From an uncultured Clostridia bacterium (lineage in GTDB: Bacteria > Bacillota > Clostridia > Christensenellales > UBA1242), in NCBI GenBank assembly GCA_947629745.1, contig CANREZ010000001.1:125181-189180 (forward strand): a DNA stretch of 64,000 nucleotides. The letters run 5' to 3'. The translations under genes were made by a program, and so were the position numbers. The notes beneath the pieces were generated by a model. The model searched no databases. It saw only the letters and a list, made by a program, of their open reading frames with translations, and was not told the origin of the DNA. Positions 19,371 through 35,170 of this stretch are shown here, piece by piece; positions within the stretch are counted from its first letter, which is position 1; each line of letters starts with the position of its first letter.

Positions 19371-19642
19371 GAAAGAGTTTGATAGGATTTAGCGCACTAC
19401 AATTTTTGTTTGCTGCACTATACTGCATCACAATTGTCGGATTGCTTGTAGGAATTCCCATGATAATCTTTGGGATACAAATGTTAAGGGCGGCACGTGA
19501 CAAAGAGTATTTTAGTGAGTTTAGGTCAGAGTACACAAATATTGCGATTTTTAATCTAATATTCACGATTGTTTTAGGTATTTTGATGTTTTTAATGTAT
19601 AATAAGATATACGAGAAGAATTTTGGAGGCGAAAATGGATAA
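19367..19642 (+). CDS. Small membrane protein
   Basis: 91 aa with 2-3 hydrophobic helices. ATGA overlap with the upstream gene. Confidence 0.55.
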   Translation: MRKSLIGFSALQFLFAALYCITIVGLLVGIPMIIFGIQMLRAARDKEYFSEFRSEYTNIAIFNLIFTIVLGILMFLMYNKIYEKNFGGENG

Positions 19643-20240
19643 TTGGAATTGGCTAAAATATGACCACGATATCATGATGGAGCCAGACAGCAATTGCGCA
19701 TATCTTGCAGAGCGTTGGTCTGGACTTGGTGGGAATAAGCTACTAGAACTAGGCTCGGGTATGGGTCAAAATTCGTTGTACTTCGCTTGCAGTGGATATG
19801 ATGTCACCGCAGTGGACTATGACAGTTATGCTATAAAGCATCTGGAGAAAATGTGCGAGAGACAAGGCGTGAAGGTAAACACAATTTGTGATGACTTCTT
19901 CAAAGCTCCACTAAAGGATGGTGGATATGACTGCGTATTCATCCGCAACGTCGTTTCACACCAAAAACTAAGTGAGTTTAAGAAATTGATTCAACTAATC
20001 TACGATTGTTTGCGCGTTGGAGGCGAAGCATATATCACTGTGCCAAGCGTGGGCCATGCAGGTAGTGAGAGGAACCCAAAAGCTGACCTCGTGCTAACTG
20101 TGGAAGATGTGAAGAAATATTTCAAGAAATTTCAATTCGTGCACAACATTGACGAAGTGATCTCTCATGACGCAGGTTGTGACAATTGTGAGGAGTGCGA
20201 GATTAGTTACTTCACACTACTACTTAGGAAGATGAAATAA
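19635..20240 (+). CDS. Class I SAM-dependent methyltransferase
   Basis: LELGSGMGQNSLYFA glycine-rich SAM motif and an acidic DYD after beta-2. Start moved to ATG 19635 (GGAGG RBS), overlapping the upstream gene by 8 nt. Confidence 0.75.
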   Translation: MDNWNWLKYDHDIMMEPDSNCAYLAERWSGLGGNKLLELGSGMGQNSLYFACSGYDVTAVDYDSYAIKHLEKMCERQGVKVNTICDDFFKAPLKDGGYDCVFIRNVVSHQKLSEFKKLIQLIYDCLRVGGEAYITVPSVGHAGSERNPKADLVLTVEDVKKYFKKFQFVHNIDEVISHDAGCDNCEECEISYFTLLLRKMK

Positions 20241-20247
20241 ATATAGG

Positions 20248-20276
20248 AGTGTTACAGCGGATGTAACACTTTTTTT
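20248..20276 (+). terminator. Rho-independent terminator
   Basis: AGTGTTACA/TGTAACACT stem followed by TTTTTT. Confidence 0.8.
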
Positions 20277-20322
20277 GTTGCAAAGTAGTTGTATTTATTT
20301 ATTATTTAGAGGAAATGCCATA

Positions 20323-20351
20323 TTGACAAAACGTGATGCCTCTTATATAAT
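20323..20351 (+). promoter_or_regulatory. Consensus sigma-A promoter
   Basis: TTGACA-17 nt-TATAAT, 24 nt upstream of ATG 20375. Confidence 0.7.
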
Positions 20352-20374
20352 AAATATGTACTGTGGAGGGGAAT

Positions 20375-21028
20375 ATGGCTAAGAAGAAGCTAAATGACCA
20401 GACAATGTATGACATATGGCTAGACAGTGTTAAGAAGAAATTAGACGACTGCAAGAATAGATATATGCCATGTGCCAGAGGATTTTTAGATAACAAGACA
20501 GGCAAACGCATTCACCTAGAATTCCAGGGAGAAGATTTTGTCAACGATTTGGGTTACGCATTTGTGAAGCTCGGACCTAACGAGTACACCTTCTATAACG
20601 CAATGAATGACAGAGTGTTTACTGCTACTTTTGGATATCGCGACAAAGTGAGGAATATATTTGATGCACTTCGCAAGAATCCAGAGGATTTTAGGAGATT
20701 ATCGATAGAATCAATCATAGTGATGAATTACAAGGAGAGGAATGAGTTGCTCGATGCTGTGGGAACTGGTATAGACAATGAACTAAGGACTCTCCAGGCA
20801 GATAACAATTCTAAGACAAAAGATTTTAGGAAACTCTATGAACTACAAAAATACGTATCCGACACACTATACAAGGTAGATATGATGAAGGCTGCACATT
20901 CTAGTGCTGCCGTGGCTCAATCAAAGTACACACTTTGGATTAGACAAGGTACTTTACGTATGGAGACCAATCTTCATCAAGACCCATTGGACGATCGATA
21001 TGACCGTGCAGACAAGAGAATAAACTAG
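20375..21028 (+). CDS. Hypothetical protein, distant paralogue of 21198-22037
   Basis: Start set at ATG 20375 (GGAGGGG RBS). Shared segments are GYAFVKLGPNEYTFYNAMNDRVF and LRKNPEDFRRLS. Confidence 0.6.
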   Translation: MAKKKLNDQTMYDIWLDSVKKKLDDCKNRYMPCARGFLDNKTGKRIHLEFQGEDFVNDLGYAFVKLGPNEYTFYNAMNDRVFTATFGYRDKVRNIFDALRKNPEDFRRLSIESIIVMNYKERNELLDAVGTGIDNELRTLQADNNSKTKDFRKLYELQKYVSDTLYKVDMMKAAHSSAAVAQSKYTLWIRQGTLRMETNLHQDPLDDRYDRADKRIN

Positions 21029-21051
21029 GTTAGTGAGAGATATTTGGATAA

Positions 21052-21081
21052 ATACACATGGTGACCCATGTGTATTTTTTT
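21052..21081 (+). terminator. Rho-independent terminator
   Basis: ATACACATGG/CCATGTGTAT stem followed by a T-run. Confidence 0.8.
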
Positions 21082-21139
21082 GTGCAAAATGACCAAATGT
21101 TGACAATGCTAATATAGCTCGTGACAATAATGGCTATAT

Positions 21140-21168
21140 TTGACAAAATGGCCCAATTGGTGTATAAT
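21140..21168 (+). promoter_or_regulatory. Consensus sigma-A promoter
   Basis: TTGACA-17 nt-TATAAT, with TG immediately upstream of the -10. Confidence 0.7.
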
Positions 21169-21197
21169 ATTTATGTAAATAAAATGGAGGTGTTATT

Positions 21198-22037
21198 ATG
21201 GAATTTACATATAGATATATACCTTATAAGAAGCAGTATGGAGGAAACCTTACTTATGCAGACAACGTGGAGGGCAAGATAGTTGATCTTGACTTAGATT
21301 TTGTAGGGGTCGTAGATAATGAAACTGGATATTCCGAAGTGTGTTTGCCGGATAAAACTTGGACATTTTTTGATGCACATACGGGTAAACTTCAAAATGT
21401 GAGATTTGCTTCGGCTGGTCCGGTTGTGGATGGTTATTCATCCGTAAAATTATTGGATGGAACATGGACAATATACAATGTGATAGACCAAAAGATATTT
21501 GACGGAAAGGTTGAACTCTCTGACTACACACAGGGAGATCCAGAAGCACAGAAGGAAGTTGATAAAATGCTCAAAAGTGACGTTCTTGATGAGCCGATCA
21601 AGGATAAAGAACTTCGTAAAAAATTTTGGAATCTTGCAAATAAGGCATACAATACTTATGACAAAGATATTCGTTCTCAAGTACTTGGTTTAATATTCCG
21701 CAATCCAGAGAATTTTAAAAATTTAACATATATTTCATTTAAGGACGAAAAATATCTAAATGCTATAAAGAAAGCTACACGAAACGGTATATTGAACCGT
21801 GTTGACAAAAAGGAAGTTCCAGTCGAAGTAGCAAACGCAGAAATATCGTATGTCAAGCAAATGTTAGCTATTGTAAAAAAGGTCGAGCAAGAAAAATTAG
21901 CTGAAATTCCAGTGCGCGACCGTAAGATTGAGGAAGAGAAAGAGGCTCTAGACGAATTGTTTGAAAAAAGAATGAAAGAGAGGAGAGCAGCACTCTTCGG
22001 CGACGATGACGATGACGACGATCAGCCAGGAGATTAA
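21198..22037 (+). CDS. Hypothetical protein with WG-type beta repeats and an acidic poly-Asp tail
   Basis: 279 aa. Contains GYSSVKLLDGTWTIYNVIDQKIF and FRNPENFKNLT. The C-terminus is GDDDDDDDQPGD. GGAGGTG RBS. Confidence 0.6.
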   Translation: MEFTYRYIPYKKQYGGNLTYADNVEGKIVDLDLDFVGVVDNETGYSEVCLPDKTWTFFDAHTGKLQNVRFASAGPVVDGYSSVKLLDGTWTIYNVIDQKIFDGKVELSDYTQGDPEAQKEVDKMLKSDVLDEPIKDKELRKKFWNLANKAYNTYDKDIRSQVLGLIFRNPENFKNLTYISFKDEKYLNAIKKATRNGILNRVDKKEVPVEVANAEISYVKQMLAIVKKVEQEKLAEIPVRDRKIEEEKEALDELFEKRMKERRAALFGDDDDDDDQPGD

Positions 22038-22042
22038 AAAAG

Positions 22043-22071
22043 ATACACACCATAGCGGTGTGTATTTTTTT
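22043..22071 (+). terminator. Rho-independent terminator
   Basis: ATACACACC/GGTGTGTAT stem followed by a T-run. The stem sequence resembles the terminator at 21052. Confidence 0.8.
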
Positions 22072-22171
22072 GCTTGAGGTTGGGGTGATAAAAATTTTAT
22101 AATATTTTTTGTTAAACATAAATATGTAGTTTTACTTAGTAAAGAACGTTATAAATATTATATAAAAATAG

Positions 22172-22849
22172 TTACTTAGCAAGGCCGAAAGTAAAGAATG
22201 TTTTGTAGATAAATGCAATGTAACTCTCGTTTTTTGGCGTGACGTATTCCACTTTGCCTCGCACATCACGCATGGAGTATGCTCCATTTTCGGAACAATC
22301 TAGAGAGTTTGCGCGGTTGTCTCCTAGCACAAAGACGTGACCTTGCGGCACAGTGTATATCATGTGATTATTGCTATCATAGGATATATTACTTTTTTGT
22401 TCGGTAATAGATGATAATTGTTGGAATGAATTCATGCAATTAACCATATCTTCCTTGCTAAGGATATATGGTTCTTCGAGTTCTTCGCCATTTCGGAAGA
22501 CGTGCACATATTTATCATGACCAGCATACATAGATATCTCGTCTCCAGGAAGTGCTATGACGCGCTTTATGATCCATATATTATCCATCTTTAGGACGAT
22601 TATATCTCCATATGTATAGCTAGCACCTTTCCTCACATACGCTTGATCAGTATTGCCCGTGGCGTTGAGAGTAGGTTGCATAGATGGTCCCTCTATCGGA
22701 GAGGTTTCATAGAGTATGGAAAAAATCACGCAACATCCTGCAAATAGTATGCAGAATGTAACGATGATATTCGATAGCAAGCTCACTAGGAATAGATATA
22801 TTGCACGCGACTTGCTAGGATAAATAGATCCACCTCTGTATTTTTCCAT
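22172..22849 (-). CDS. lepB: Signal peptidase I
   Basis: 225 aa. N-terminal TM helix, catalytic-Ser box GPSMQPTL, and GDNRANSLD box. Confidence 0.85.
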   Translation of the reverse strand: MEKYRGGSIYPSKSRAIYLFLVSLLSNIIVTFCILFAGCCVIFSILYETSPIEGPSMQPTLNATGNTDQAYVRKGASYTYGDIIVLKMDNIWIIKRVIALPGDEISMYAGHDKYVHVFRNGEELEEPYILSKEDMVNCMNSFQQLSSITEQKSNISYDSNNHMIYTVPQGHVFVLGDNRANSLDCSENGAYSMRDVRGKVEYVTPKNESYIAFIYKTFFTFGLAK

Positions 22850-24737: not shown

Positions 24738-24747
24738 GATATCTCCT

Positions 24748-24834
24748 TTATTGCATCATTATACAACTTTTGATGCAATAAATCAAGCATTTATTTTAGT
24801 TTATTGCATCATTTGATATATTTTGATGCAATAA
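24748..24834. promoter_or_regulatory. Two copies of a 34-bp palindromic operator (TTATTGCATCA-N12-TGATGCAATAA)
   Basis: The copies lie at 24748-24781 and 24801-24834, with centres 53 bp apart, in the divergent region between fic and 24945. The first copy abuts the fic RBS. Confidence 0.7.
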
Positions 24835-24944
24835 AATGAATTTTATAAGGGTAATAGTCAATTTCTCAATAATGCTTTTCTTCATCACAATTGCCTATTG
24901 ATTTGGAGTGGTTAGTATGGTAAAATATTTGTGTTGAGGTATTT

Positions 24945-26474
24945 ATGATAGATAATGCAAAGGCAAGTATAAATAGTGTGCAAGATTACGTCTATTATTT
25001 GATGTTAAAGAGGACCACTTACAGTGATCACATTGTGGTGGAAGTAAAGCGTGAGGATCTAGTAAGTCCAAATTTTTCACGCGCTATTCGGGATCAATTA
25101 TTTGTTATGCTTGCTGGTGGCAAACGTGTAGAATTCCATTGTATTGACAAGGATTTGTACTTTAGAGAAAGTGAAGCCTTAAAGTTACTTGGCGACTATG
25201 AATATCTTAAGGCTCATGGTTGTGAATTATATTTCCGCGAGACATTGGATGATATGGGGATAGAATTTAGTCTAGACGAAGCTGATAGACTTGACTATTT
25301 TACAATAGGCTCCAACAATAAAACGTATGAGAATGATGATAGGGTTCAGGCTGGCAAATTGGATTGGGATAAAACGGGCAAGACTATGACAACGCCAATA
25401 ACATTCGATCAAGTGATGGAGGCAAATTCAAAGATCCTCTCCGTTGCAAATAAGATAAATAGATATGCAGAGGAACATAATATCTCTCCATTTGAGAAAT
25501 TCTTGATCTGCCGCAAATACATTTGTAAAAAAATTGAATATATTACCGAACCTGTAGTGGACACGCATAGTTATATTGGCACTATACTTGCAATGAAAGG
25601 TTGTTGTTCGGGTGAAGCACAATCACTTAGAATTTTACTCAAATTATGTGGGATAAATTCATTTTGCATTAGCACAGATATTAATGCAAAGGATGTAAAT
25701 CTTTCCCTTCCACTAATGAGGAGATATAGCGGAGTCAATACGCTTATTTATGAAGGTAAAGAGTTAACCATAGATGAGTATGAAAAGATTTGTATAGACA
25801 AAATTAATAGCTTAGAATCTAAGGAAATGTCTACAAATCACGCCATCAATATAGTCCAAATAGATGATGATAAATATGGCATGCATGGAATAGGCGCTAC
25901 TGATCCTACCGGGAGTAATGATTTTGAATTACTATTCATAAAGGACAAAGAATGTCTTAATAATTTATTCAACTTTTCATCATATATACGTCTTTTACAC
26001 GGTAATGGATTTGAGGAGTTCATCCGAAATGTAGAGCAGAACACGATAAGCAAGGATGATTACAAAAAGATTGATGAAGATATTTTCAGTTTTGCAAAAA
26101 TGTCAATAATAGAACAGATAAAGGGAAGTACGCCAAAGAAATTAACAGATGAAGACCATAATGCAATGGCTATTTTCCTGAATGCGATCATTAAGTGTAA
26201 AACATTATCATCCTTGGAATATATAATGGATCTTTATAGTATGGGTCAAAATTCCAGCGAAAGTGAGTTAGCGCGTCATATATTCCCTCGCATTAAGAAT
26301 AACAAACTTGGAGCGTATTGCTTAATAAAAGAGGCTATTAGTAGTCGTGCCACACTCGAGAATCTGCCAAGGCTAGAGCCATTGTCGGTAGATGACTATG
26401 CGTGGGCTGACATAGTGTCAGACAAAGCATACAATGCTATCTTCCCTGAGGATAGCAACAACACGCAAAGATAG
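24945..26474 (+). CDS. Hypothetical protein with a central transglutaminase-like cysteine-protease core
   Basis: 509 aa. A candidate Cys-His-Asp arrangement is KGCCSGEAQSLRILLKLCGI ... NHAINIVQIDDDKYGMHGIGATDPT. Confidence 0.55.
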   Translation: MIDNAKASINSVQDYVYYLMLKRTTYSDHIVVEVKREDLVSPNFSRAIRDQLFVMLAGGKRVEFHCIDKDLYFRESEALKLLGDYEYLKAHGCELYFRETLDDMGIEFSLDEADRLDYFTIGSNNKTYENDDRVQAGKLDWDKTGKTMTTPITFDQVMEANSKILSVANKINRYAEEHNISPFEKFLICRKYICKKIEYITEPVVDTHSYIGTILAMKGCCSGEAQSLRILLKLCGINSFCISTDINAKDVNLSLPLMRRYSGVNTLIYEGKELTIDEYEKICIDKINSLESKEMSTNHAINIVQIDDDKYGMHGIGATDPTGSNDFELLFIKDKECLNNLFNFSSYIRLLHGNGFEEFIRNVEQNTISKDDYKKIDEDIFSFAKMSIIEQIKGSTPKKLTDEDHNAMAIFLNAIIKCKTLSSLEYIMDLYSMGQNSSESELARHIFPRIKNNKLGAYCLIKEAISSRATLENLPRLEPLSVDDYAWADIVSDKAYNAIFPEDSNNTQR

Positions 26475-26492
26475 GGGATAAGTTATAACAAA

Positions 26493-27164
26493 GTGGCACG
26501 CCACTGTCCTAGGGTGATAATGAAGTGAACTGATATTATTTGTTAGAGGGAATGATGTTGGCATGTGAGATTAGTAGTAAGCACGCTCAATCCCCCTTAC
26601 TAAGGGCGGCCTTTAAATAAGGACGGAATAGATATATGAGAGAGTATGGAGCACGAATGTAAGTAAGCAAAAAAAGTCGGCTCAATCCCCTCAGATTGCA
26701 TACGCAATCAGCTCCCCCTACTACGGGGCGCCTAAAGCGGTTAAAATTAAATAAAAAGATGGAACAATCGCTTAAACAAGCATTATATATTTGGGGTCCC
26801 CATAAAAATAGCTTGCGGCAAAATAGGGCATCCCGCAAAAATAGTCGTAGACGTACTTTTTGTGGGAAAGAGGAAGAGTCGAGTGATACCTCGGGAGTTT
26901 GTGCGAACAGCACAAAATTTCGTTTTAAACTCGTGCTCTGACGAGGGGAGGAGGCGAAGTCACGCGATACCCGGAAGTTGGCTGAGCGTATAAAAAATGC
27001 GAAGCCAACGCTTAAACGAGTGTGTACACTAACGGGGTCCCCGCAAAAATAGCGGAACGCGGCCTTTTGTGGGGAGAGGAGGAACAAATGCATAACCTGA
27101 AAGATTGTTCCATGATTTGTAAAAAAAATGGAACAATCGCTTAAACAAGCATTTGTTCCGACGA
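26493..27164 (-). repeat. GC-rich hairpin-mosaic element, long copy (element 2), fused to the 3' end of tRNA-Leu
   Basis: It starts right after the CCA of tRNA-Leu with a terminator hairpin and ends at GTGGCACGCCAC (26493-26504). It contains the 52-nt motif (26681-26732) and CAAAA/TTTTG-stem hairpins (26832-26866, 27039-27074). It is an inverted homologue of 34446-34997. Confidence 0.8.
27121..27159 (-). terminator. Rho-independent terminator of tRNA-Leu (part of element 2)
   Basis: On the minus strand: GGAACAAATGCTT-GTTT-AAGCGATTGTTCC hairpin followed by TTTTTTTT. Confidence 0.8.
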
Positions 27165-27249
27165 TGGTGCGGATAGGGAGACTCGAACTCCCACGGATTG
27201 CTCCACATGCCCCTCAAACATGAGCGTCTGCCAGTTCCGCCATATCCGC
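27165..27249 (-). tRNA. tRNA-Leu (anticodon GAG)
   Basis: Type II tRNA: GCGGATA acceptor, anticodon stem-loop CATGT-TTGAGGG-GCATG, long variable arm, T-loop TTCGAGT, encoded CCA. Confidence 0.85.
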
Positions 27250-27352
27250 ATATTTAGTTGTAACGAATATATAATAACATACTTTGAGATATTTTGAAAT
27301 ACTTTTTGTCCATATTTTACAAAATTCTATATCTATACTTATCTAAAAGTAC

Positions 27353-27381
27353 TGGACATAAAACATTTTATGTTATATACT
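27353..27381 (+). promoter_or_regulatory. Sigma-A-like promoter for tRNA-Val
   Basis: TGGACA-17 nt-TATACT, 20 nt upstream of the tRNA 5' end. Confidence 0.55.
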
Positions 27382-27400
27382 TGAAGGGTATCCTGAATAT

Positions 27401-27476
27401 GGGGAATTAACTCAGTTGGTAGAGTGCTTCCGTCACATGGAAGAAGTCATAGGTTCGAGTCCTATATTCCCTACCA
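27401..27476 (+). tRNA. tRNA-Val (anticodon CAC)
   Basis: The cloverleaf folds by hand. The anticodon stem-loop is CTTCC-GTCACAT-GGAAG, with an unusual G at position 32. The D and T arms are identical to tRNA-Val(GAC) at 35032. CCA is encoded. Confidence 0.75.
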
Positions 27477-27483
27477 TAGAAAA

Positions 27484-27510
27484 GATGAGACTTGTGTGTC
27501 TCATTTTTTT
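27484..27510 (+). terminator. Rho-independent terminator after tRNA-Val
   Basis: ATGAGAC/GTCTCAT stem followed by TTTTTTT. Confidence 0.8.
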
Positions 27511-27554
27511 GTGGATTCTAACTATTTGTGATATAAATAACTATAAGAGGTCTT

Positions 27555-28217
27555 ATGGATAATAGGTTTAAGTACAGGGCGTTTAATAGAGAAAAAGCGC
27601 TAAAATTTGGATTTAGGTCGGATAGTGCGGGGTACATATACGAGCAAGATATCTTGGATGGCACATTTAGGCTAGTGGTAACTATTAATAGTACAGGGGA
27701 AGTGTCGACCAAGGTCCTAGATAACAAAACTGGCGACGAATATATCATGTACAAGTTGTCCTCTAGTGGAAATTTTGTGGGGCAAGTGCGCGAGCATTGC
27801 GACAGCGTGTTAGACGAGATTGCACGAGAGTGTTTTGACCCAGATTCTTTCAAAAATACTCAGACTAAGGAAATTATAGCATATATCAAGGATAAATATG
27901 GTGACGAACTGGAATTCTTATGGGAAAACTTCCCGACTGACGCTATTTTTAGACGAAAGGATAATAAGAAGTGGTATGCACTACTAATGAGTGTAAAGAA
28001 CGAAAAGTTGAATCTATCTAGTACGGGTGAGAGTGAAGTGTTAGATATTCGCTGTGATGCAAATGCTATACAGAATATCGTGGATGGCAAAAAGATTTTA
28101 CCTGGTTACCATATGAATAAGAAACATTGGATCACTATAGTGTTAGATAATAGACTAGATATGGCGACTACTAGAGCCCTTATTGACGATAGTTACATGA
28201 TAGCGGGGAAGAAATAA
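27555..28217 (+). CDS. MmcQ/YjbR family DNA-binding protein with N-terminal extension
   Basis: 220 aa. The C-terminal half (FRRKDNKKWYALLMSV ... PGYHMNKKHWITIVLD) fits the YjbR fold family. Confidence 0.7.
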   Translation: MDNRFKYRAFNREKALKFGFRSDSAGYIYEQDILDGTFRLVVTINSTGEVSTKVLDNKTGDEYIMYKLSSSGNFVGQVREHCDSVLDEIARECFDPDSFKNTQTKEIIAYIKDKYGDELEFLWENFPTDAIFRRKDNKKWYALLMSVKNEKLNLSSTGESEVLDIRCDANAIQNIVDGKKILPGYHMNKKHWITIVLDNRLDMATTRALIDDSYMIAGKK

Positions 28218-28377
28218 CGTAGCAAAAACTTTCTCTAACTCAAAATTATCGCTACAATACGCCAAATTTTAAAGAAAATTTTTGTAAAAACAATTAAGAT
28301 TTTGGATATAAAATGCCTAAATTTCGTGGGCAAGAAATACGCCTAAAAAGATTGTAGGAATTGCATAAAAGATTTAC

Positions 28378-28406
28378 TTGCACTTTTAGCTTGAACCCTC
28401 TATAAT
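28378..28406 (+). promoter_or_regulatory. Sigma-A promoter
   Basis: TTGCAC-17 nt-TATAAT, about 55 nt upstream of the small ORF at 28460. Confidence 0.65.
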
Positions 28407-28459
28407 ATACAATATGTTGGGTAAAATTATCTAACGCACTACAATATATGGAGGGACAT

Positions 28460-28606
28460 ATGAGTGATCTATATGGTAGTAGTACTACATACAACGATGA
28501 AGATGGCAACGAGATAGTGTTTCACGAGGAAATTGGCGTGGACGACGATGGTCAGATCGGCTATAACAGCGGAATATCTATAAACGGAATTGATCTGGAT
28601 TATTAA
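28460..28606 (+). CDS. Small acidic hypothetical protein (48 aa)
   Basis: MSDLYGSSTTYNDEDGNEIVFHEEIGVDDDGQIGYNSGISINGIDLDY. It has a GGAGGG RBS 5 nt upstream, its own promoter and a downstream terminator. It falls below the ORF-track length cutoff. Confidence 0.45.
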   Translation: MSDLYGSSTTYNDEDGNEIVFHEEIGVDDDGQIGYNSGISINGIDLDY

Positions 28607-28671
28607 AAAAATTTAGAAATATTTAATAAAAATTATTTAATAAAATTTTGGGCATAACTTTTTTATACCCA

Positions 28672-28703
28672 CAAAAAATGTAGCAAAAGTGCTACATTTT
28701 TTT
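28672..28703. terminator. Bidirectional terminator
   Basis: ATGTAGC/GCTACAT stem flanked by an A-run and a T-run, between convergent genes. Confidence 0.75.
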
Positions 28704-28705
28704 GT

Positions 28706-29224
28706 TTATTCGATATACTGGATATAATCTTTCACACGCTCGCGCGAGGTATTGAGGAATTCCTCAAATAACTCGGGCCTATTATTTAGATCAGCATATA
28801 TCTTGCTCTGCAGGATGCAATCTAATTTGTCTAGTGCCTTTACGAAGCGAGCCTCAGGTGAGCTATTCTCCTCAAATTCTAGCCAAAGCGACTCAATCTC
28901 GGGCATACTAGAAAGATTTGATAGGCGGCAGATACATTTGTGTTCCTCACAATACTTTTGCTCCAGTGGCACATGGTCGATAGGGGTGACATCTCCCACA
29001 TCTATCTCACCCAGTTCGTGGAAGAGTATCATCTTTAGCACTTTCGCCTCATCCAGTTTTAGATGTTCACGCTCCATAATTTCACAGGCAAGTACAGCCA
29101 TGGAGAATGTGTGCTCAGCGTCACTCTCGACGCGTTTTGTATTTGGGTCAGACACATCTCTTACGATCCAGCCTTTCCTGCAAAGATTCTTTAACTTGTA
29201 AATTTCTTTGAATAACTCTGTCAT
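28706..29224 (-). CDS. HD-domain phosphohydrolase (YfbR-like 5'-deoxynucleotidase family)
   Basis: 172 aa. Contains ESDAEHTFSMAVLA and LFHELGEIDVGD (H..HD..D metal ligands). Confidence 0.8.
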   Translation of the reverse strand: MTELFKEIYKLKNLCRKGWIVRDVSDPNTKRVESDAEHTFSMAVLACEIMEREHLKLDEAKVLKMILFHELGEIDVGDVTPIDHVPLEQKYCEEHKCICRLSNLSSMPEIESLWLEFEENSSPEARFVKALDKLDCILQSKIYADLNNRPELFEEFLNTSRERVKDYIQYIE

Positions 29225-29334
29225 AATTTACCTACATAAATTTATATTACATTTGATCTAAATTTAGTATAACGAAATAAACTTTGCCTGACAAATATTT
29301 TTATCTCCCAACAACATATTTGGTGATCCTGCAC

Positions 29335-29363
29335 GAAAAAAGTGTGCCAAAATTAGCACACTT
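29335..29363 (-). terminator. Rho-independent terminator
   Basis: AAGTGTGC/GCACACTT stem with a T-run on the minus strand. Confidence 0.7.
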
Positions 29364-29385
29364 CATTTTACTATTTAACCTAAAA

Positions 29386-29721
29386 TTAATAGTCCTTTTT
29401 CTTTTTCTTAAGCTCATCTAGTTGCATTAGGATGACAGCATTGTACTGCTCATCAAGCTCATTATACATTCTTTTGAAGTTATCTGCCTTTTGCCAAGAA
29501 GTGGAAGAAGGATTGACATTCAGTCTCTTGCCCTCTATTGCGACCTTTTGCATATAGTCTGCTTTTGATGGTGACCATTTCCTAACGTACGCCTCGGTGA
29601 CATTGTATATGATGTCAAAGATACGGTCGTCGTGAACTTTGCAAAGTTCCTGCATCTGCTCCTTCCTAATTAGTGTGTCATGAATTTGTTGCTCAATTTC
29701 GTCTGCTGTGAAATTTGTCAT
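29386..29721 (-). CDS. Hypothetical protein
   Basis: Start set at MTNFTADEIEQQ, preceded by AAAGGAGAT. The track start at 29769 lacks an RBS. Confidence 0.55.
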   Translation of the reverse strand: MTNFTADEIEQQIHDTLIRKEQMQELCKVHDDRIFDIIYNVTEAYVRKWSPSKADYMQKVAIEGKRLNVNPSSTSWQKADNFKRMYNELDEQYNAVILMQLDELKKKKKDY

Positions 29722-29793
29722 ATCTAATCTCCTTTTTATCATGATAACATATTTTACGCTTGATGGCAAAGAATGTAGACAATTATCAAAAAT

Positions 29794-29868
29794 TGGTCGG
29801 GGTGATGAGATTTGAACTCATGGCCTCATGGTCCCGAACCATGCGCGCTACCCCTGCGCTACACCCCG
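29794..29868 (-). tRNA. tRNA-Pro (anticodon CGG)
   Basis: CGGGGTG acceptor, anticodon stem-loop CATGG-TTCGGGA-CCATG, T-loop TTCAAAT, encoded CCA. Confidence 0.85.
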
Positions 29869-29965
29869 AAAAATATGATTGCATAACCATATAAGATATG
29901 ATAGCACAACCAAGGATTTTTTACAATCCAAAGTGGATAGATAATAACTATGGAGTAATTGTAGA

Positions 29966-30000
29966 TAAAAATAGGCCACAGTATTTGTGGCCTATTTTTA
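29966..30000. other. Strong terminator-like hairpin in a divergent intergenic region
   Basis: ATAGGCCACA/TGTGGCCTAT 10-bp stem flanked by AAAA and TTTT. It lies between the tRNA-Pro 5' end and the MFS gene start. Confidence 0.5.
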
Positions 30001-30111
30001 ATAAACGGTGACAAATAGGGGATAAATATATTACACCATATATTCGTCCATAATATGTATAAAAAATTGACAAAAAAGAGTGCATTTGCTAAATTGTTTA
30101 TGTGAGGCAAT

Positions 30112-31422
30112 ATGGAATATACTTATGATATAAATACTAGTAAGAAAGATAACCGTGCCAATGTGTGTATATTCATCTGTCACTTCTTTTATGCAGTGAT
30201 TGACCTATTCATATCCACATTCCTTGTGGCGCATATCAAGGATCTCACGACTAGTGTAGGTGAATACATCAGGTATATCGCGATATATTACATGATAACA
30301 CTTACCGTGCAACTAGTGGCGTACCCTATAATCTCAAGGATCGTGGATAGGACAAATCGTGTGTGGATGTACAGGATTGGTTGCTTGATGCTCGCAGTTG
30401 TTGTCACTTTGTCTATGTTTAGTGACAAAAACACCTTAGTTATGCTCATTATTCTGGGTTCATGCTATGGTGTGGCAGATACGGCATATTATGCTAGTTA
30501 CAATACTATGAAGCAAGAGATGGTCAGTCGCAAGTCGATTGAGAAATTCTCCTATTATATGACGATTATATCTAAATGCATCGATGTGGTAGTGCCACTA
30601 ACACTCGGCTCTATCATTCAGTCATCGTCCTTTGTCGTGGGAAGTATAGTTGTCGCAATAATTGCTGCTATCCAAGTGGGTGTGTCATTTGGCGTATCAG
30701 CCAAGCATCCAAAGGGTAGCAAATTTAATATGCGGGGATTCATTAGGAAAGTGCGATCACGTCCGGCATTAAAGAAGAAACTGGACTTCCTGTATGCAAT
30801 ATTTGCGGGCTATGGATTCCTACTATTCTTTAGCATATGCATGAATGTATTCACTATGCTGCATATGGACTCCAACTTATCCCTTGGAATAATTAAGAGC
30901 TCGTGTAGTGTGATAGCAATATTATTTACTGTCATGTCACTCAGTCTTGGCAAGATCGGCAAGCGCACTCCGTCGTATATAATTTGTGCAATACTTCCAG
31001 TGATTGCCGGAGTAATATACGCTATCAACCCATGTGAATGGACTATAATATTCTTCACACTTGCATTCCTTATTAGTTACATCGAGTGTAAGACCACTCT
31101 TGATTACTTTAGAAATACACTGCTAAAGGAAGCAGGTCTATACAGTGAGATTACCGAGCACCAGACACTAATTGAGATGTTACTTGCTACAGTCAGATTA
31201 TTTACATTTGCACTGCTACTTGCTATGTCATTCGTAGGCAGTGAGCTTGGAGTCAATATCCTTGCTTGCATCTTCACTCTAGCATTCCCATTCATCTATA
31301 TTATGCTCATCATCTTTGAGAAGAAGATACTCCCTATTGGCACAGATGCTGATATCGCGGGAAGTAATGATGCAAGTGATGTGCAAACTAGCGAAGACAA
31401 GGGAAACCTCAAAAACAACTAA
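30112..31422 (+). CDS. MFS-type transporter
   Basis: 436 aa with about 12 TM helices and a central cytoplasmic loop. Preceded by TTGACA-17 nt-TAAATT and a GAGG RBS. Confidence 0.6.
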   Translation: MEYTYDINTSKKDNRANVCIFICHFFYAVIDLFISTFLVAHIKDLTTSVGEYIRYIAIYYMITLTVQLVAYPIISRIVDRTNRVWMYRIGCLMLAVVVTLSMFSDKNTLVMLIILGSCYGVADTAYYASYNTMKQEMVSRKSIEKFSYYMTIISKCIDVVVPLTLGSIIQSSSFVVGSIVVAIIAAIQVGVSFGVSAKHPKGSKFNMRGFIRKVRSRPALKKKLDFLYAIFAGYGFLLFFSICMNVFTMLHMDSNLSLGIIKSSCSVIAILFTVMSLSLGKIGKRTPSYIICAILPVIAGVIYAINPCEWTIIFFTLAFLISYIECKTTLDYFRNTLLKEAGLYSEITEHQTLIEMLLATVRLFTFALLLAMSFVGSELGVNILACIFTLAFPFIYIMLIIFEKKILPIGTDADIAGSNDASDVQTSEDKGNLKNN

Positions 31423-31545
31423 CTATAAAATTAGTAGAGTTGCTAACAAATAGCGAGTAACAAAATAATTATTTGTTAGAAAGTAGCAAAAAGACCAATT
31501 GTACTAATTCAATTAGTAGCAATATTGATAGTTTAATATTTGTGA

Positions 31546-31581
31546 TAAAAAAATGCATTGTTTCGCACAATGCATTTTTTA
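31546..31581. terminator. Bidirectional terminator
   Basis: AATGCATTG/CAATGCATT stem flanked by an A-run and a T-run. Confidence 0.8.
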
Positions 31582-31588
31582 AACTTAT

Positions 31589-32416
31589 TTAGTGAGTGGA
31601 GACGAATATGAATCCGAATGCGTTTGGTCCCCAGTGGCACGCGATAGCAGGGTCTAGGTTGTCATAAATGGTCATTACCTGCTTGTATTTCTCATCACAC
31701 ATATTCACTAGTGCATCGAGATTGCTTTGATTGTATGAGTATGATGCGATGATAGGATAACTTGTGTCACAATCAAGCTCAGATAATTGCTTTGAGATAT
31801 ATTGCATGCTGCCGCGAAGACCTAGCTTCTTTGCAATCACCTTCACTTCGCCATTAACGAATCCTATAACCGGCTTGATATGAAGTGTGTCGCCGAGAAT
31901 TTTTTCGAACCTATTTAGTCTGCCGCCACGATATAGATACTCTAGTGTCTCAGGGATAGCCATGATGTGAATCTTCGACCTTAGCTCTTCCAATTTCCCA
32001 AGGACAAAATCTATATCCTTGTCGCGATATTTATTCGCTTCCATCACAAGATATCTTATAGCACCAACTGCTCCCATGGAGTCAAATACGTGGACTTTTT
32101 CGTTCTCCTTGAACATATTTGAGATGGTGTTGAACGTGCCAGAAATTTTTGACGAAATGGTGATGAGCAACACTTCGTCACCTGCTTTTGTGTAACCCTC
32201 GACTAACTTTTGCACGGATTCAAGCTCGGGTAGGGCAGTCTTTGGGAATAACTTCTCATCGATTAGTTTGTGGTAAAATTCTTCATTTGAGATCTCTATC
32301 TCATCAGCGTAATCTTTGTCTTCAAATATGACGCGAAGAGGCAGGATATCCACATTGTACTCAGATTTTTCCGCCTGCTTGATACTGCTGCCGGAATCAA
32401 CAATTATTCTTAACAT
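31589..32416 (-). CDS. DegV family fatty-acid-binding protein
   Basis: 275 aa. The N-terminus (IIVDSGSSI ... VDILPLRV) and the length fit DegV. AGGAGA RBS. Confidence 0.85.
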   Translation of the reverse strand: MLRIIVDSGSSIKQAEKSEYNVDILPLRVIFEDKDYADEIEISNEEFYHKLIDEKLFPKTALPELESVQKLVEGYTKAGDEVLLITISSKISGTFNTISNMFKENEKVHVFDSMGAVGAIRYLVMEANKYRDKDIDFVLGKLEELRSKIHIMAIPETLEYLYRGGRLNRFEKILGDTLHIKPVIGFVNGEVKVIAKKLGLRGSMQYISKQLSELDCDTSYPIIASYSYNQSNLDALVNMCDEKYKQVMTIYDNLDPAIACHWGPNAFGFIFVSTH

Positions 32417-32579
32417 ATTATCTCCTATATATACTATCTATGAAAGCAATTTCTCAAATATTCTCCCGAATATATGCGAAATTTTTGTATTTTAATCATC
32501 TTATCTTAAGGAACATTGTAGCACAATCTATTTCTTTTGCCAAGGGAATATAATAGTATAAAGTGCAACTCGTGCGAAT

Positions 32580-33251
32580 TTAGTCATTTTTTAGGAAATG
32601 GTTAAATGCGAGTAACCACACATTGCTTGTTATATCCTCAGGCTTAGTGTAGGATGTGATAACACTTGCGTCGTGCTTGGTAAAGGCTATTACATCAAAT
32701 AGTTTGTAATAATCTGTAGTCGGCATGACTAGATTGTGTGCCACGTCTATCACCTCTCCTGCACTCTCTATCCAGGTGTGAAGGTGGCCTACACTATGGC
32801 GTTCCCACTGAGATATATCTATCACTCCTGTTACAATAAGATATGTGGAGTGAGGACATTTGCGGCAAACATCTATCACTTGGTCTGCACTATCTCCTCT
32901 AGAATTCTTGCTAGCACGGACGAGGTTTGCTGGTCCTTGTTCGTCAAGCCTTGCATATTCGAAATGCCCCACTATAGGGTTGCTAAATTCTTCGCTCTCT
33001 TCACTATTTAGATAGATGCCGTCGCCGTGTTTGTGTTCATTGTATTTTTGCAGCTCATGGTAGACATCTAGCCTGTCACTTCCTGCCATGCATTCCTTGA
33101 TAACAAGGCCTGCAATCACACCTTTTGGCTCACGCTTTCGGGGTTTGCCCATATACGTATCTGTGTCAGACGATGCTTCGTCGCGGATACGCTTTTCTAC
33201 GAATCTCTTTGCCTCAGATATGTTTAGATTCAAAATGTCCAATTCTTCCAT
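32580..33251 (-). CDS. Hypothetical protein (possible papain/transglutaminase-like Cys-His fold)
   Basis: 223-aa ORF. CRKCPHS ... GHLHTWIESAGEVIDVAHN hints at a Cys/His/Asp hydrolase, but this is weak. It has a leaderless-type promoter. Confidence 0.55.
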   Translation of the reverse strand: MEELDILNLNISEAKRFVEKRIRDEASSDTDTYMGKPRKREPKGVIAGLVIKECMAGSDRLDVYHELQKYNEHKHGDGIYLNSEESEEFSNPIVGHFEYARLDEQGPANLVRASKNSRGDSADQVIDVCRKCPHSTYLIVTGVIDISQWERHSVGHLHTWIESAGEVIDVAHNLVMPTTDYYKLFDVIAFTKHDASVITSYTKPEDITSNVWLLAFNHFLKND

Positions 33252-33257
33252 ATTCTA

Positions 33258-33286
33258 ATTATACTTTTAGTAGAGAGTTTTGTCAA
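33258..33286 (-). promoter_or_regulatory. Perfect consensus sigma-A promoter positioned for a leaderless mRNA
   Basis: On the minus strand: TTGACA-17 nt-TATAAT-tagaat-ATG (start codon 33249-33251). No SD. Confidence 0.65.
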
Positions 33287-33348
33287 AGTGTAACTAGAAG
33301 TAATTCTAATTTAGGTGGGATAGAGCATATCATATTGTGAGGTGGAAT

Positions 33349-33633
33349 ATGGAAAATGTAATTCGCGTGACAAACAATCAACCGACAGGTACTCACCGTG
33401 TGGTGATAGACTCTAGAGAAAAGGTGACTATGACTGGGGTAGAAAAGGTGGATAGTGCCTCGGATAGTCAAGTAAATCTCCATGCTGCAAAGACCAAGGT
33501 GACAATATTAGGCTCGGGTCTATTAGTGAATAAATTTGACGTGGAGAGTGGCAACCTAGAGGTAGTGGGGAAAATAAATGGAGTACGCTATAACGAACCA
33601 GCCAAAGGATTACTAAAAAGGTTAGTTAAGTAA
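33349..33633 (+). CDS. yabP: Sporulation protein YabP
   Basis: About 94 aa. The YabP-like core reads HRVVIDSREKVTMTGVEKVDSASDSQVNLH ... LEVVGKINGVRY. Start set at ATG 33349 (GAGGTGG RBS). Confidence 0.75.
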   Translation: MENVIRVTNNQPTGTHRVVIDSREKVTMTGVEKVDSASDSQVNLHAAKTKVTILGSGLLVNKFDVESGNLEVVGKINGVRYNEPAKGLLKRLVK

Positions 33634-34001
33634 TGTATTTTAATACGCTATCTCAAGGGTACATTGCACTCATTCTTGCCACTATTGGATTCTTGTGTGG
33701 AATAATCTACAATTTGTCCCGCGCAACGACCATGATATTTGGTGGAAGTGCAGTAATTAGATTTATACTAGACTTCCTAGCAACGCTCATATCATTTGGA
33801 GTATTGTACTTATCTATCAATATCCTATATTTCGGGTGGATTCGACCATATATGCTAGCAGCATTTTTCCTTGGAATGTATTTTGAGCTAATCACTGTGG
33901 GAAAATTATTTGCCAATACATTCAAAATGCTATATAATAAAATAGCAAAGTTGTGGGGCAAATTTTTGAACACACGCTTTGGCAAAAGGCTAGCGAAGTA
34001 G
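33633..34001 (+). CDS. yabQ: Spore cortex biosynthesis membrane protein YabQ
   Basis: 122-aa multi-TM protein. Assignment rests on its position after yabP and a TAATG overlap with it. Confidence 0.6.
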   Translation: MYFNTLSQGYIALILATIGFLCGIIYNLSRATTMIFGGSAVIRFILDFLATLISFGVLYLSINILYFGWIRPYMLAAFFLGMYFELITVGKLFANTFKMLYNKIAKLWGKFLNTRFGKRLAK

Positions 34002-34192
34002 TGGATAACAACAAAAAATGGACTTTAATCTCACTGATAGTATCGGGCGTCATCATGGTGACACTGATTGTTGTCATGTGCTTCCAGTTCGTGAAGATAA
34101 ATGATTACAAGTCGAGACTACAAGATTTGGAGCGCCAATTGGACGAAATTAGTGAAAAATTGGATGATTCTACTTCGGGGAATAACCACTAG
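34001..34192 (+). CDS. divIC: Septum formation initiator (DivIC/FtsB family)
   Basis: A single TM helix followed by a coiled coil (LQDLERQLDEISEKL), in the yabP-yabQ-divIC synteny. GTG 34001 overlaps the yabQ stop (TAGTG). The track start at 33953 is in the same frame. Confidence 0.55.
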   Translation: MDNNKKWTLISLIVSGVIMVTLIVVMCFQFVKINDYKSRLQDLERQLDEISEKLDDSTSGNNH

Positions 34193-34226
34193 AATACTCT
34201 AGCCAGCAAAATATCGCTAAAATGTA

Positions 34227-34255
34227 TTGACAAATTGTCGTAATTAAAATAAAAT
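34227..34255 (+). promoter_or_regulatory. Sigma-A promoter for the tRNA-fMet/tRNA-Met pair
   Basis: TTGACA-17 nt-TAAAAT, 28 nt upstream of tRNA-fMet. Confidence 0.65.
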
Positions 34256-34283
34256 AAAAGGGCAATTAAGCAAAACATTTCGT

Positions 34284-34360
34284 CGCGGGGTGGAGCAGCT
34301 CGGCAGCTCGTTGGGCTCATAACCCAAAGGTCGTAGGTTCGAATCCTACCCCCGCAACCA
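34284..34360 (+). tRNA. Initiator tRNA-fMet (anticodon CAT)
   Basis: C1-A72 mismatch, three G-C pairs closing the anticodon stem (TTGGG-CTCATAA-CCCAA), encoded CCA. Confidence 0.9.
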
Positions 34361-34368
34361 TTTATTTT

Positions 34369-35023: not shown

Positions 35024-35031
35024 ATTTCTTA

Positions 35032-35107: not shown

Positions 35108-35170
35108 ATATGCTATATAATATATATAACATATATAGCTTTTTGTCAATTATTTTTTGTTAATTGCTAT

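Follow-up and report, generated by a model that had tools for sequence, protein, structure and literature searches.

The region that starts at the first base past the CCA of tRNA-Leu(GAG) is probably no single RNA gene but a mosaic in which dispersed repeat modules of two or more kinds are combined, all of them non-coding and hairpin-forming. The genes on either side of it in a 64-kb stretch of DNA (the window) are transcribed towards each other, and our best reading of its kind is that the modules are non-autonomous repeats resembling REP, BIME and MITE elements, an undescribed family of an ordinary sort of bacterial intergenic repeat. Judged by its sequence, the first hairpin of the tRNA-proximal part, together with its U8 run, has the form of an intrinsic terminator behind tRNA-Leu and tRNA-Met alike, and the distal module also occurs by itself, as a foldback element bounded by inverted termini, where the only syntenic relative has an empty site. 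The original prediction had described a terminator, a second hairpin, hairpins with CCCC stems, a 52-nt motif, a collapsed copy of that motif and a terminus. All of these are in place, and their recurrence is beyond chance: a 20-mer, a 26-mer and the 12-mer terminus each occur three to five times in the window, compared with 0.00–0.04 occurrences expected from shuffled sequences. The region was also said to be GC-richer than its surroundings, and it is (0.42–0.51, compared with 0.30–0.39 in the flanks and 0.40 for the whole window).

Layout of the region behind tRNA-Leu(GAG)

The tRNA-Leu(GAG) gene (27165–27249, minus strand) was identified with ARAGORN; it was not listed in the Rfam gathering run over the whole window and scored 46.8 bits with the Rfam tRNA model in a local run. 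The region downstream of it (copy 1) consists of two parts: a proximal part of 380 nt, which is a degenerate array of A (long-hairpin) and B (CCCC/GGGG-hairpin) units, and a distal part of ~250 nt, which holds the motif M, a tail and the GTGGCACGCCAC terminus. All units of copy 1 are described on the minus strand. Six nucleotides past the CCA begins the hairpin of the predicted intrinsic terminator of tRNA-Leu (27121–27159), a GGAACAAATGCTT-GTTT-AAGCGATTGTTCC stem (27130–27159; 13 pairs, including one A·A mismatch and one G·U pair) followed by U8 (27121–27128); a simple terminator scanner missed it because of the internal mismatch. The same terminator is the 5′ half of unit A1 (27081–27159), a 79-nt long hairpin with an 11-bp outer stem (X:X′), an 11-bp inner stem (Y:Y′), internal loops TTGTTTAAGC / TTTCAGGTTAT and a T-rich apical loop. 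The long hairpin is an alternative fold to the terminator, and the second hairpin downstream of tRNA-Leu, which reuses the GGAACAA/TTGTTCC stem, ends at 27081. A C-rich linker (TCCTCTCCCC), hairpin B1 (CCCCACAAAA...TTTTTGCGGGG) and ACCCC follow at 27034–27080. Unit A2 (26953–27033) has the loop strings of A1 (GTTTAAGC, TTCCGGGTATC), is collinear with copy 2 and differs from A1 in its inner stem (7 bp, GTTGGCT/AGCCAAC). Unit A3 (26872–26952) has the architecture of A1 and A2 with unrelated stems (outer AGAG..CGAG/CTCG.CTCT; inner TTTGTGC/GCACAAA); on the plus strand, its inner hairpin is terminator-like, with a T-rich run after it. Hairpins B2 (26826–26871) and B3 (truncated, 26793–26825) come next and, like the B1 segment, have CCCCxCAAAA/TTTTGxGGGG stems. 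Beyond them, a truncated A unit (26753–26784) is a direct repeat of 27122–27153 (31 of 32 positions identical) that covers the 3′ two-thirds of the terminator hairpin and its T-run. Among the A units the loop strings GTTTAAGC and TTYCNGGTWTC are conserved, and the stems are unrelated yet perfectly paired. An unpaired CGTC stands directly 5′ of the first stem in A1 of both tRNA-linked copies and in A3, these three instances only.

The distal part opens with M (26680–26745; the ~52-nt motif of the original prediction is 26681–26734), to which covariance model R1, built from M, gives 62.3 bits (E = 1.7e-20). Its sequence, CCGCTTTAGG-CGCCCC GTAGTA GGGGGAGC-TG-[ATTGC GTAT GCAAT]-CTGAGGGGATTGAGC, forms two adjacent hairpins and then a conserved, G-rich, single-stranded tail. 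In a collapsed copy of M (26585–26611; partial R1 match at 26594–26606), hairpin 2 is absent and hairpin 1 is fused straight to the GGGGGATTGAGC tail; together with a 68-nt spacer (26612–26679), this copy forms an internal duplication that is absent from copy 3. The tail and terminus (...CAGTGGCGTGCCAC; 26489–26584), with GTGGCACGCCAC at 26493–26504, lie 18 nt from the stop codon of a convergent 509-aa ORF.

A 168-aa ORF (26587–27093, minus strand) is called a gene in public annotation. We rejected it as a protein gene: it has no Pfam match and no true homologue, a search of 5.8 billion proteins returned only itself, a representative set of 1.84 billion returned otherwise two long, low-complexity, eukaryote-like repeat proteins, and copy 2 has no counterpart of it. 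We additionally considered a leader-peptide attenuator, given a small plus-strand ORF (MHNLKDCSMICKKNGTIA, 27087–27143) with a strong Shine-Dalgarno sequence and the four-segment structure of A1; this was ruled out, as the ATG is ACG in copy 2 and nothing regulatable lies downstream. The terminus contains the TGGCAC of a sigma-54 promoter, but the GG-N10-GC spacing fails; a sigma-70-like GTGGCA-17-GATAAT is weak (9 of 12 only), and the R''/R' boxes of an integron attC are absent.

Copies in the window and the M family

The window holds three copies, two linked to a tRNA and one without. Copy 2 (34446–34998, plus strand) starts at the base after the CCA of tRNA-Met#2 (CAT), which is likewise trailed by an A1-type terminator hairpin and T8. 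It runs through A1 (34450–34529), B1, a partial A2, B2, B3, an extra terminator-like hairpin (34806–34835), M (34852–34905), a tail and GTGGCGTGCCAC (34986–34997), and its end adjoins the terminator of a convergent tRNA-Val(GAC). Copies 1 and 2 are 86% identical over their first 157 nt and collinear for ~212 nt, with a compensatory T-A to C-G change in the outer stem of A1; module number and order vary between them. The A–B array was seen only at these two tRNA sites and in none of the other genomes or collections searched. IMG/VR scans and blastn against plasmid and phage collections gave no match to the region, and the four matches to the proximal 23-mer GCTTGTTTAAGCGATTGTTCCAT in a metagenome scan represent one chance match in the coding region of a marine organism.

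Copy 3 (15852–16253, no strand assigned; ~395–402 bp) lies between two convergent protein genes and is a copy of the distal part alone. Its layout is that of a foldback element: a terminus, a 95-nt tail, the reverse complement of M (15950–16003), 19 nt, M (16023–16077), 165 nt and a terminus. The ends form an imperfect terminal inverted repeat of 25 nt (arms 15851–15875 and 16229–16253, 84% complementary), and as single-stranded DNA the element folds end to end (z = –7.3). No target-site duplication was found in its flanks (...AAATTTGT and GGGGACTAAC...), and its right end is followed by ACTGAGGGGA. All four exact GTGGCACGCCAC sites in the window are at element ends and read inward alike; in copies 1 and 2, just one end has the terminus. 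Identity of M between the window copies is 85–87%. Because the tail and terminus of copy 1 are closer to copy 3 (92% identity, left end) than to copy 2 (70%), we regard the region as a mosaic.

Copy 3 lies between the genes for a CCA-adding enzyme and an M14 peptidase, which are 540 nt apart in the window; in the syntenic Logan contig L031/L035 they are separated by 44 nt with one bidirectional terminator. Because this relative is distant (35–64% amino-acid identity), gain and loss at the site are indistinguishable. Contig L035 diverges ahead of the tRNA-Leu locus and offers no comparison for copy 1, and the best YjbR homologues, through which an empty copy 1 site was sought, were ~50% identical and not syntenic. 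Module boundaries (26565, 26753, 15912 and 15863) are where independent low-coverage assemblies of the same organism are interrupted, with metagenome contig L023 ending exactly at the truncated A unit.

Using R1, we found four full copies and one partial copy of M in the 64-kb window. M was also found at 21 loci in six metagenome-assembled genomes (MAGs) of gut or rumen Clostridia. A looser scan gave 58 copies, of which most stand in inverted, convergent pairs or in mosaic clusters. Intergenic DNA holds ~26 of the 28 clusters, and M in the MAGs is not tRNA-adjacent. The inverted pairs combine slightly different subtypes, an a type (GAGCTG...CTGAGGGG) and a b type (GAGGTG...CGGAGGGG), and in MAG copies TTAG or TTGG takes the place of the GTAG found in the hairpin 1 loop. 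Across 42 copies, 96% of cells in the two-hairpin structure are paired, and 121 cells carry double changes, compared with 46 in shuffles (the observed value was reached in 0 of 500). The core is nearly identical (identical over 23 nt) in genomes of 40% to 62% GC; such conservation is unusual for selfish repeats and could instead mean that M is maintained by a conserved host factor or an RNA function. The terminus GTGGCGTGCCAC may derive from hairpin 2 of a b-type M: it has 10 nt in common with Ruminococcus MAG copies, ACTGAGGGGA follows the right end of copy 3, and the R1 match has only 7.6 bits (E = 1). Because R1 did not detect the B hairpins, the view of B, A and CTGACGAGGGGAGG as an expanded M unit draws only on short G/C-rich strings. 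Searches for catalogued REP-, BOX- or MITE-like families in these uncultured gut and rumen Clostridia found none, and the literature, searched in full text, yielded nothing relevant on the motif strings or on repeat families of Oscillospiraceae or Ruminococcaceae. M is a structured intergenic repeat family of these bacteria that has not been described before.

Folding and the alternative explanations

The description of the region as a ~670-nt structured element held for the proximal 380 nt (26785–27164), which fold beyond shuffled sequences (z = –5.2 for the tRNA strand, –7.4 for its complement), but not for the distal 253 nt, which are no more structured than shuffles (z = –0.85 and +0.32, respectively). 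The whole 672 nt gave –220.7 kcal/mol on the plus strand (z = –8.0) and –184.9 kcal/mol on the tRNA strand (z = –3.7), and the summed energies of the A and B units were –220.6 kcal/mol on the opposite strand compared with –191.1 kcal/mol on the tRNA strand. For M, 55 of 58 copies fold better on the G-rich strand, and in copy 1 this is the strand of the tRNA. Thus, the modules prefer opposite strands, and this, together with the unremarkable folding of the distal part, argues against a single RNA.

The original prediction offered as one hypothesis a large structured non-coding RNA of the ROOL/GOLLD/OLE kind, which would be made by read-through from tRNA-Leu or from its own promoter. The region does resemble these RNAs in its length of ~600 nt, its many hairpins, its excess folding on the tRNA strand, the absence of a conserved ORF and its place beside a tRNA. 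The association of ROOL and GOLLD with tRNA genes, on which the original prediction drew, is correct, but it applies to phages and prophages, in which they are encoded, often near tRNA islands (PMC12286853). The window genes are housekeeping genes (SpoIIE, TilS, ArgRS, PheRS, NrdD and [FeFe] hydrogenase), with no phage or prophage context. The proposed cmscan check with the ROOL, GOLLD, OLE, HEARO and raiA models gave zero matches at gathering score over the whole window, and no Rfam model matched at E ≤ 10 in 26400–27300, 34250–35120 or 15740–16300. In both tRNA-linked copies a U8 terminator with a 13-bp stem separates the tRNA from what follows, the copies gain, lose and duplicate modules, and the distal part occurs alone in the tRNA-less copy 3. 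We therefore regard a large RNA of this kind as very improbable. We consider it quite unlikely that the proximal A–B array is a functional plus-strand RNA in the 3′ untranslated region of the convergent 509-aa gene, where it would serve as a terminator, insulator or stabiliser or offer its conserved internal loops to a binding protein. That reading gains from the much better folding of the plus strand, from G·U pairs there that are A·C mismatches on the other strand, from loop strings that are conserved while the stems covary, and from the position of the first terminator-like plus-strand site, which lies in A3 (26898–26916), the stretch from the stop codon (26474) to the element having no terminator. 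However, the same strand of copy 2 sits behind a complete tRNA-Val terminator and may go untranscribed there; M has its disfavoured orientation on this strand; the substitutions between copies 1 and 2 are too few to decide (one compensatory, four one-sided and pair-keeping, two pair-breaking); and recognition of the hairpins in single-stranded DNA would likewise lead to strand-specific G·T pairs.

The second hypothesis of the original prediction, a repeat element that targets tRNAs, fared better: a repeat element is supported by three copies in 64 kb and by relatives of M in six other genomes, but targeting is suggested, not shown, by two cases only. Two of the three copies start 0–1 nt past a CCA, behind two unrelated tRNAs. 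In its strongest form, the whole block of ~550–670 nt would be one non-autonomous mobile element that targets tRNA 3′ ends with its own terminator aboard. In keeping with this, CGTCGGAACAAA... lies within 0–1 nt of the CCA behind both Leu-GAG and Met-CAT, similarity ends exactly at the CCA, and the two copies share a module order through to GTGGCGTGCCAC. Yet the expectation that other tRNA genes carry the same 3′ appendage was borne out for tRNA-Met#2 and not for the remaining six of the eight tRNAs in the window, which have plain terminators; nothing like the distal terminus is present at the tRNA-proximal end; copy 3 has the distal module by itself; the parts of copy 1 differ in their closest relative; and M elsewhere is not beside tRNAs. 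We consider this account improbable. A purely local origin, in which the tRNA terminator was tandemly duplicated and the copies decayed, with no mobility and no function beyond termination, would accommodate the 32-nt direct repeat of half the terminator, 369 nt from the original, and a loose recurrence of A and B at spacings of 102 and 208 nt. It is strongly disfavoured by the three loci in the window, and we hold it to be highly unlikely: the same 212-nt block stands behind a different tRNA 7.3 kb away, M with its tail is at a third locus and M is in other genomes too, and Tandem Repeats Finder reports no tandem array.

Relation to known repeats and significance

REP, BIME and REPIN elements are extragenic palindromes of Proteobacteria, and their GTAG class has RAYT transposases. 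M resembles them as a short extragenic palindrome with covarying stems, its inverted pairs of a and b subtypes are comparable to BIME Y/Z heterodimers, and both kinds form mosaics with other short motifs at gene 3′ ends and lack target duplications. In contrast, the region has no sequence similarity to REP or BIME elements, its stems are 11–13 bp with internal loops compared with 8–9 bp in REPs, and the GTAG of M is in a loop and not, like the unpaired GTAG or CGTC tag of REPs, at the foot of the stem. REPs are usually species- or genus-specific, whereas the M core is shared by genomes that differ widely in GC. REPs tagged with CGTC, to be compared with the CGTC before the A1 and A3 stems, have been described in a survey that found no REPs in Clostridia (PMC3733652), the lineage of the present host. 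REPs accompany a single-copy RAYT (Y1/HUH) transposase gene that they flank; no RAYT gene was found in the DNA available here, and no Y1 or other transposase domain among the window ORFs. BOX elements of Streptococcus pneumoniae consist of boxA, a variable number of boxB and boxC. The tRNA-linked copies likewise begin and end with a fixed module and have internal hairpin modules in varying number, and they are intergenic, strongly folding and without coding capacity; they differ in sequence, in a first module that doubles as a tRNA terminator and in a last module that is also an independent foldback element. Foldback MITEs include the Correia elements of Neisseria and bcr1 of the Bacillus cereus group. 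Copy 3 alone has the terminal inverted repeats, small size and non-coding character of a MITE, with an end-to-end fold and a site that is empty in a relative; it departs from MITEs in having no target-site duplication and no known parent IS, and copies 1 and 2 in having a single terminus.

For the mosaic of repeat modules, we propose that the modules are non-autonomous DNA whose spread would depend on an enzyme acting in trans from another locus. A candidate is a hairpin-recognising, single-strand-specific transposase of the REPIN/RAYT or IS200/IS605 type, which fits because target duplications are absent and the G·U pairs are strand-specific. Recombination between copies may then reshuffle the modules, and the stacked hairpins, once settled, might terminate or insulate transcription that converges on them and shield RNA 3′ ends. 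No transposase, integrase or RAYT gene was found among the ORFs of the 64-kb window, no IS in the window and no parent IS sharing the ends of copy 3, and the 21 MAG loci of M had no transposase and no shared protein beside the repeats. We also entertain, as unlikely, the idea that M and its expanded A/B relatives are cis-acting sites of an unrecognised trans-acting system in Oscillospirales-like gut Clostridia, one variant of which is here specific for the base after the tRNA CCA and supplies the tRNA terminator. Such a system, perhaps a single-strand DNA transposase that was domesticated or else an RNA-binding factor, would explain the identity of the 23-nt core across that range of GC.

As it stands, the feature is of an ordinary kind and not a new RNA class. 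It has consequences for annotation, since public pipelines called a 168-aa "protein" across the repeat, and metagenome assemblies of the source organism break at its modules. If the precise abutment to tRNA 3′ ends holds genome-wide, this would be a rare bacterial small non-coding element that targets tRNA ends and donates terminators.

Organization and recurrence of the region behind tRNA-Leu

The gene for tRNA-Leu(GAG) (27165–27249, minus strand, ARAGORN) is separated by 690 nt from a convergent 509-aa ORF (stop codon at 26474). All of the features that the original prediction listed in this gap were located on the minus strand: a terminator hairpin followed by T8 (27130–27159), a second hairpin that reuses the GGAACAA/TTGTTCC stem and ends at 27081, three hairpins with CCCCxCAAAA/TTTTGxGGGG stems, a ~52-nt motif that we call M (26681–26734), a collapsed copy of M (26585–26611), and the terminus GTGGCACGCCAC (26493–26504). 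The region is also GC-richer than its surroundings, as had been noted (0.42–0.51 versus 0.30–0.39 in the flanks). Its proximal 380 nt (27164–26785) form a loose array of two unit types, A and B, and its distal 250 nt comprise M, a 68-nt spacer with the collapsed M, an 80-nt tail, and the terminus.

By comparing the window with itself and by direct reading, we found two further copies. Copy 2 (34446–34998, plus strand) directly follows the CCA of the second tRNA-Met, its first bases being CGTCGGAACAAACGC (versus TCGTCGGAACAAATGC at tRNA-Leu). Its initial 157 nt share 86% identity with copy 1, the region behind tRNA-Leu, and the two are collinear for ~212 nt; the interior of copy 2 then diverges, and it closes as copy 1 does, with M, the tail, and CAGTGGCGTGCCAC. 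Copy 3 (15852–16253) has no tRNA and lies between convergent genes for a CCA-adding enzyme and an M14 peptidase. It is built of two inverted M copies set back to back; the 25-nt arms of its imperfect terminal inverted repeat each include GTGGCACGCCAC. In single-stranded form the DNA folds end to end (z = −7.3). Exact matches to GTGGCACGCCAC occur four times in the window, always at an element end (0.04 sites expected by chance). The spacer and collapsed M of copy 1 are an internal duplication absent from copy 3. The copy 1 tail is 92% identical to that of copy 3 and 70% identical to that of copy 2, while the proximal block matches copy 2; thus, the parts have separate histories. Module boundaries are also where contigs end in three independent low-coverage ENA assemblies of this organism, as expected of multicopy repeats.

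Copies 1 and 2 are mutually inverted, 7.3 kb apart (26493–34998), with their GTGGCACGCCAC termini facing outward, the same topology as in copy 3 (395 bp). Between them lie tRNAs (Leu, Val(CAC), Pro, and two Met) and genes for YjbR, an HD-domain protein, an MFS transporter, DegV, and YabQ; this segment could be an inversion substrate, and because this content is housekeeping, a cargo-carrying transposon is unlikely.

Several annotations and neighboring features were considered separately. The NCBI-annotated 168-aa ORF that crosses the tRNA-Leu gap (26587–27093, minus strand) is spurious: Pfam assigns it no domain, no real homologue emerged from two very large protein searches, and copy 2 lacks a counterpart. 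A 113-aa ORF annotated in ENA across the repeat mosaic (L023, 3–341) is also spurious. We rejected a small plus-strand ORF, MHNLKDCSMICKKNGTIA (27087–27143, inside the first A unit and opposite the tRNA strand, with a strong GGAGG site 6 nt upstream), as not conserved, its ATG being ACG in copy 2. tRNA-Leu(GAG) is not among the seven tRNAs of the whole-window Rfam run at the gathering threshold; it scored 46.8 bits in a local run (29-bit cut-off), and the miss is a filter effect, no sign of a defective tRNA. Between a divergent Fic-domain gene and the 509-aa ORF (24747–24835) are two nearly identical 36-nt palindromes, TTTATTGCATCA...TGATGCAATAAA, 17 nt apart, which are likely regulator binding sites, and four direct copies of the 24-nt TTTATTTAGTCAyTTTGCACAAAA (57379–57606, plus strand, intergenic; spacings 102, 45, and 57 nt) look like operator or binding-site repeats. 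A holin-like ORF (Phage_holin_6_1, borderline score) adjoining a 299-aa ORF with collagen-like repeats (50544–51855, minus strand) is possibly left over from a phage and has no connection with the repeats.

Unit structure and strand preference

Each A unit is a long hairpin: an outer and an inner stem are separated by an internal loop, whose two sides carry GTTTAAGC and TTYCNGGTWTC, and a T-rich apical loop caps the inner stem. In A1, A2, and A3 the loop strings are conserved and the stems are perfectly paired though unrelated in sequence (GATTGTTCCAT/ATGGAACAATC, GTTGGCT/AGCCAAC, and TTTGTGC/GCACAAA, respectively), and a comparison of copies 1 and 2 shows one compensatory change (T-A to C-G) in the outer stem of A1. 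B units are CCCC...GGGG hairpins, each preceded by a CCTCC-rich linker, and the array is closed by a truncated A unit (26753–26784) identical to 27122–27153 at 31 of 32 positions. The 5' half of A1 folds alone as a 13-pair hairpin followed by U8 and, judged by its form, is a putative intrinsic terminator for tRNA-Leu and, in copy 2, tRNA-Met; the remaining window tRNAs have simple terminators, each different. The A2 loop string CTTCCGGGTAT (26964–26977, minus strand) is the exact reverse complement of 11 nt of the tRNA-Met#2 anticodon arm (34401–34414, minus strand), probably by chance.

The original prediction offered two readings, a large tRNA-linked noncoding RNA of the ROOL or GOLLD kind and a tRNA-targeting repeat element. 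In favor of a structured RNA, the whole 672 nt fold better than shuffled sequences (z = −3.7 on the tRNA strand and −8.0 on the opposite strand). This signal is found in the A–B array (26785–27164; z = −5.2 and −7.4, respectively) and not in the distal 253 nt (26493–26745; z = −0.85 and +0.32). Unit by unit, A and B favor the strand opposite the tRNA, because G·U pairs there become A·C mismatches on the other strand, whereas M folds better on its G-rich strand, the tRNA strand of copy 1, in 55 of its 58 copies, so that no one strand holds all modules in their favored form. Moreover, the U8 terminator stands between the tRNA and the rest of the region, and module content varies among copies. 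Together these observations argue against a single ornate RNA, which we reject, and for independently oriented modules, resembling the alternating palindromes of BIMEs. Model searches and genomic context excluded ROOL, GOLLD, OLE, HEARO, and raiA. We accept the repeat-element reading, given three copies in the window and relatives of M in other genomes. Its tRNA-targeting component is less secure: the exact start of the A–B array at CCA+1 behind two unrelated tRNAs is striking, but the appendage occurs on only two of the eight window tRNAs, and with two cases targeting is unproven.

The M family and comparison with relatives

Scanning one genome per species for GGGGAGCTG-N(8–30)-CTGAGGGGATTGAG, we found 21 loci in six uncultured gut or rumen Clostridia (52–62% GC), including Oscillospiraceae, a Ruminococcus species, and UBA4696; a looser scan gave 58 copies. 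Copies usually form convergent inverted pairs, 40–150 nt apart, of two subtypes, a (...GGGGAGCTG-hairpin-CTGAGGGGATTGAG) and b (...GGGGAGGTG-hairpin-CGGAGGGGGTTGA), or else lie in larger mosaics, where further CCCC/GGGG hairpins and other palindromes accompany them. Clusters are intergenic in ~26 of 28 cases, with all gene orientations represented; in these other genomes none was found adjacent to a tRNA, and the neighborhoods of the 21 loci share no protein. An alignment of 42 copies shows two adjacent hairpins and then a conserved single-stranded G-rich tail, with 96% of cells paired (~47% when partners were slid) and 121 double-change cells versus 46 in shuffles (0/500). The derived covariance model finds exactly four full copies and one partial copy in the window, and no Rfam family matches M in the window or 20 of the metagenome-assembled loci. 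We regard these repeats as a new family within an already known kind of feature. In the Oscillospiraceae genome CAYRYT01 (57–62% GC; L003, L005, L008, L009, L012–L016, and L018), M lies inside larger mosaics that also contain additional CCCC-loop-GGGG hairpins, a GGCGCGGCC...GGCCGCG palindrome, and a GTAG-headed palindrome, GTAGGGGCCGATTCTTAATCGGCCC, some of them arrayed with a period of ~175 nt.

The source lineage is a spore-forming anaerobic member of the Clostridia (SpoIIE, YabQ, [FeFe] hydrogenase, NrdD), and the databases hold no close relative, the best homologues of two proteins being 44–53% identical. A Logan contig (L031/L035, 34% GC) is syntenic with 11823–22849 at 35–64% amino-acid identity; its synteny stops short of the tRNA-Leu locus, and the comparison of gaps covers the copy 3 site. 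In the contig, 44 nt with one bidirectional terminator separate the genes for the CCA enzyme and the M14 peptidase, as against 540 nt with copy 3 in the window. Over 13.6 kb the contig has no copy of any of the motifs, and a plain terminator follows its tRNA-Arg.

Proposed mobility and consequences for transcription

The data show dispersed non-coding modules that form hairpins and have defined ends. We infer that they are non-autonomous DNA repeats that would spread in trans and be reshuffled by recombination. The lack of target duplications, the strand-specific G·T/G·U pairs, and the inverted pairs of two subtypes fit a hairpin-recognizing, REPIN/RAYT- or IS200/IS605-like transposase acting on single-stranded DNA better than a cut-and-paste DDE enzyme; no gene for such a transposase was seen in the window or beside the metagenome-assembled M loci. 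In behavior, the nearest known system is REP/BIME/REPIN: GTAG- and CGTC-tagged palindromes form heterodimeric inverted pairs that favor gene 3' ends, and the CGTC class has no associated transposase (PMC3733652). CGTC also stands ahead of A1 and A3, which we treat as a lead only. These modules differ from REPs in sequence, in the length of their stems, and in host phylum, and the DNA available contained no RAYT, so we do not file them within a REP family. BOX elements are nearest in modular layout, and foldback MITEs are nearest to copy 3, except that copy 3 lacks a target duplication.

It is conceivable, though we consider it improbable, that a conserved trans-acting factor maintains the M core across Oscillospirales-like Clostridia, with one variant specific for tRNA 3' ends. 

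For the plus-strand 509-aa gene, no terminator precedes the element; the first site that resembles one is within A3. Lodged between converging genes, the stacked hairpins would be expected to stop transcription or insulate it, and to protect 3' ends.
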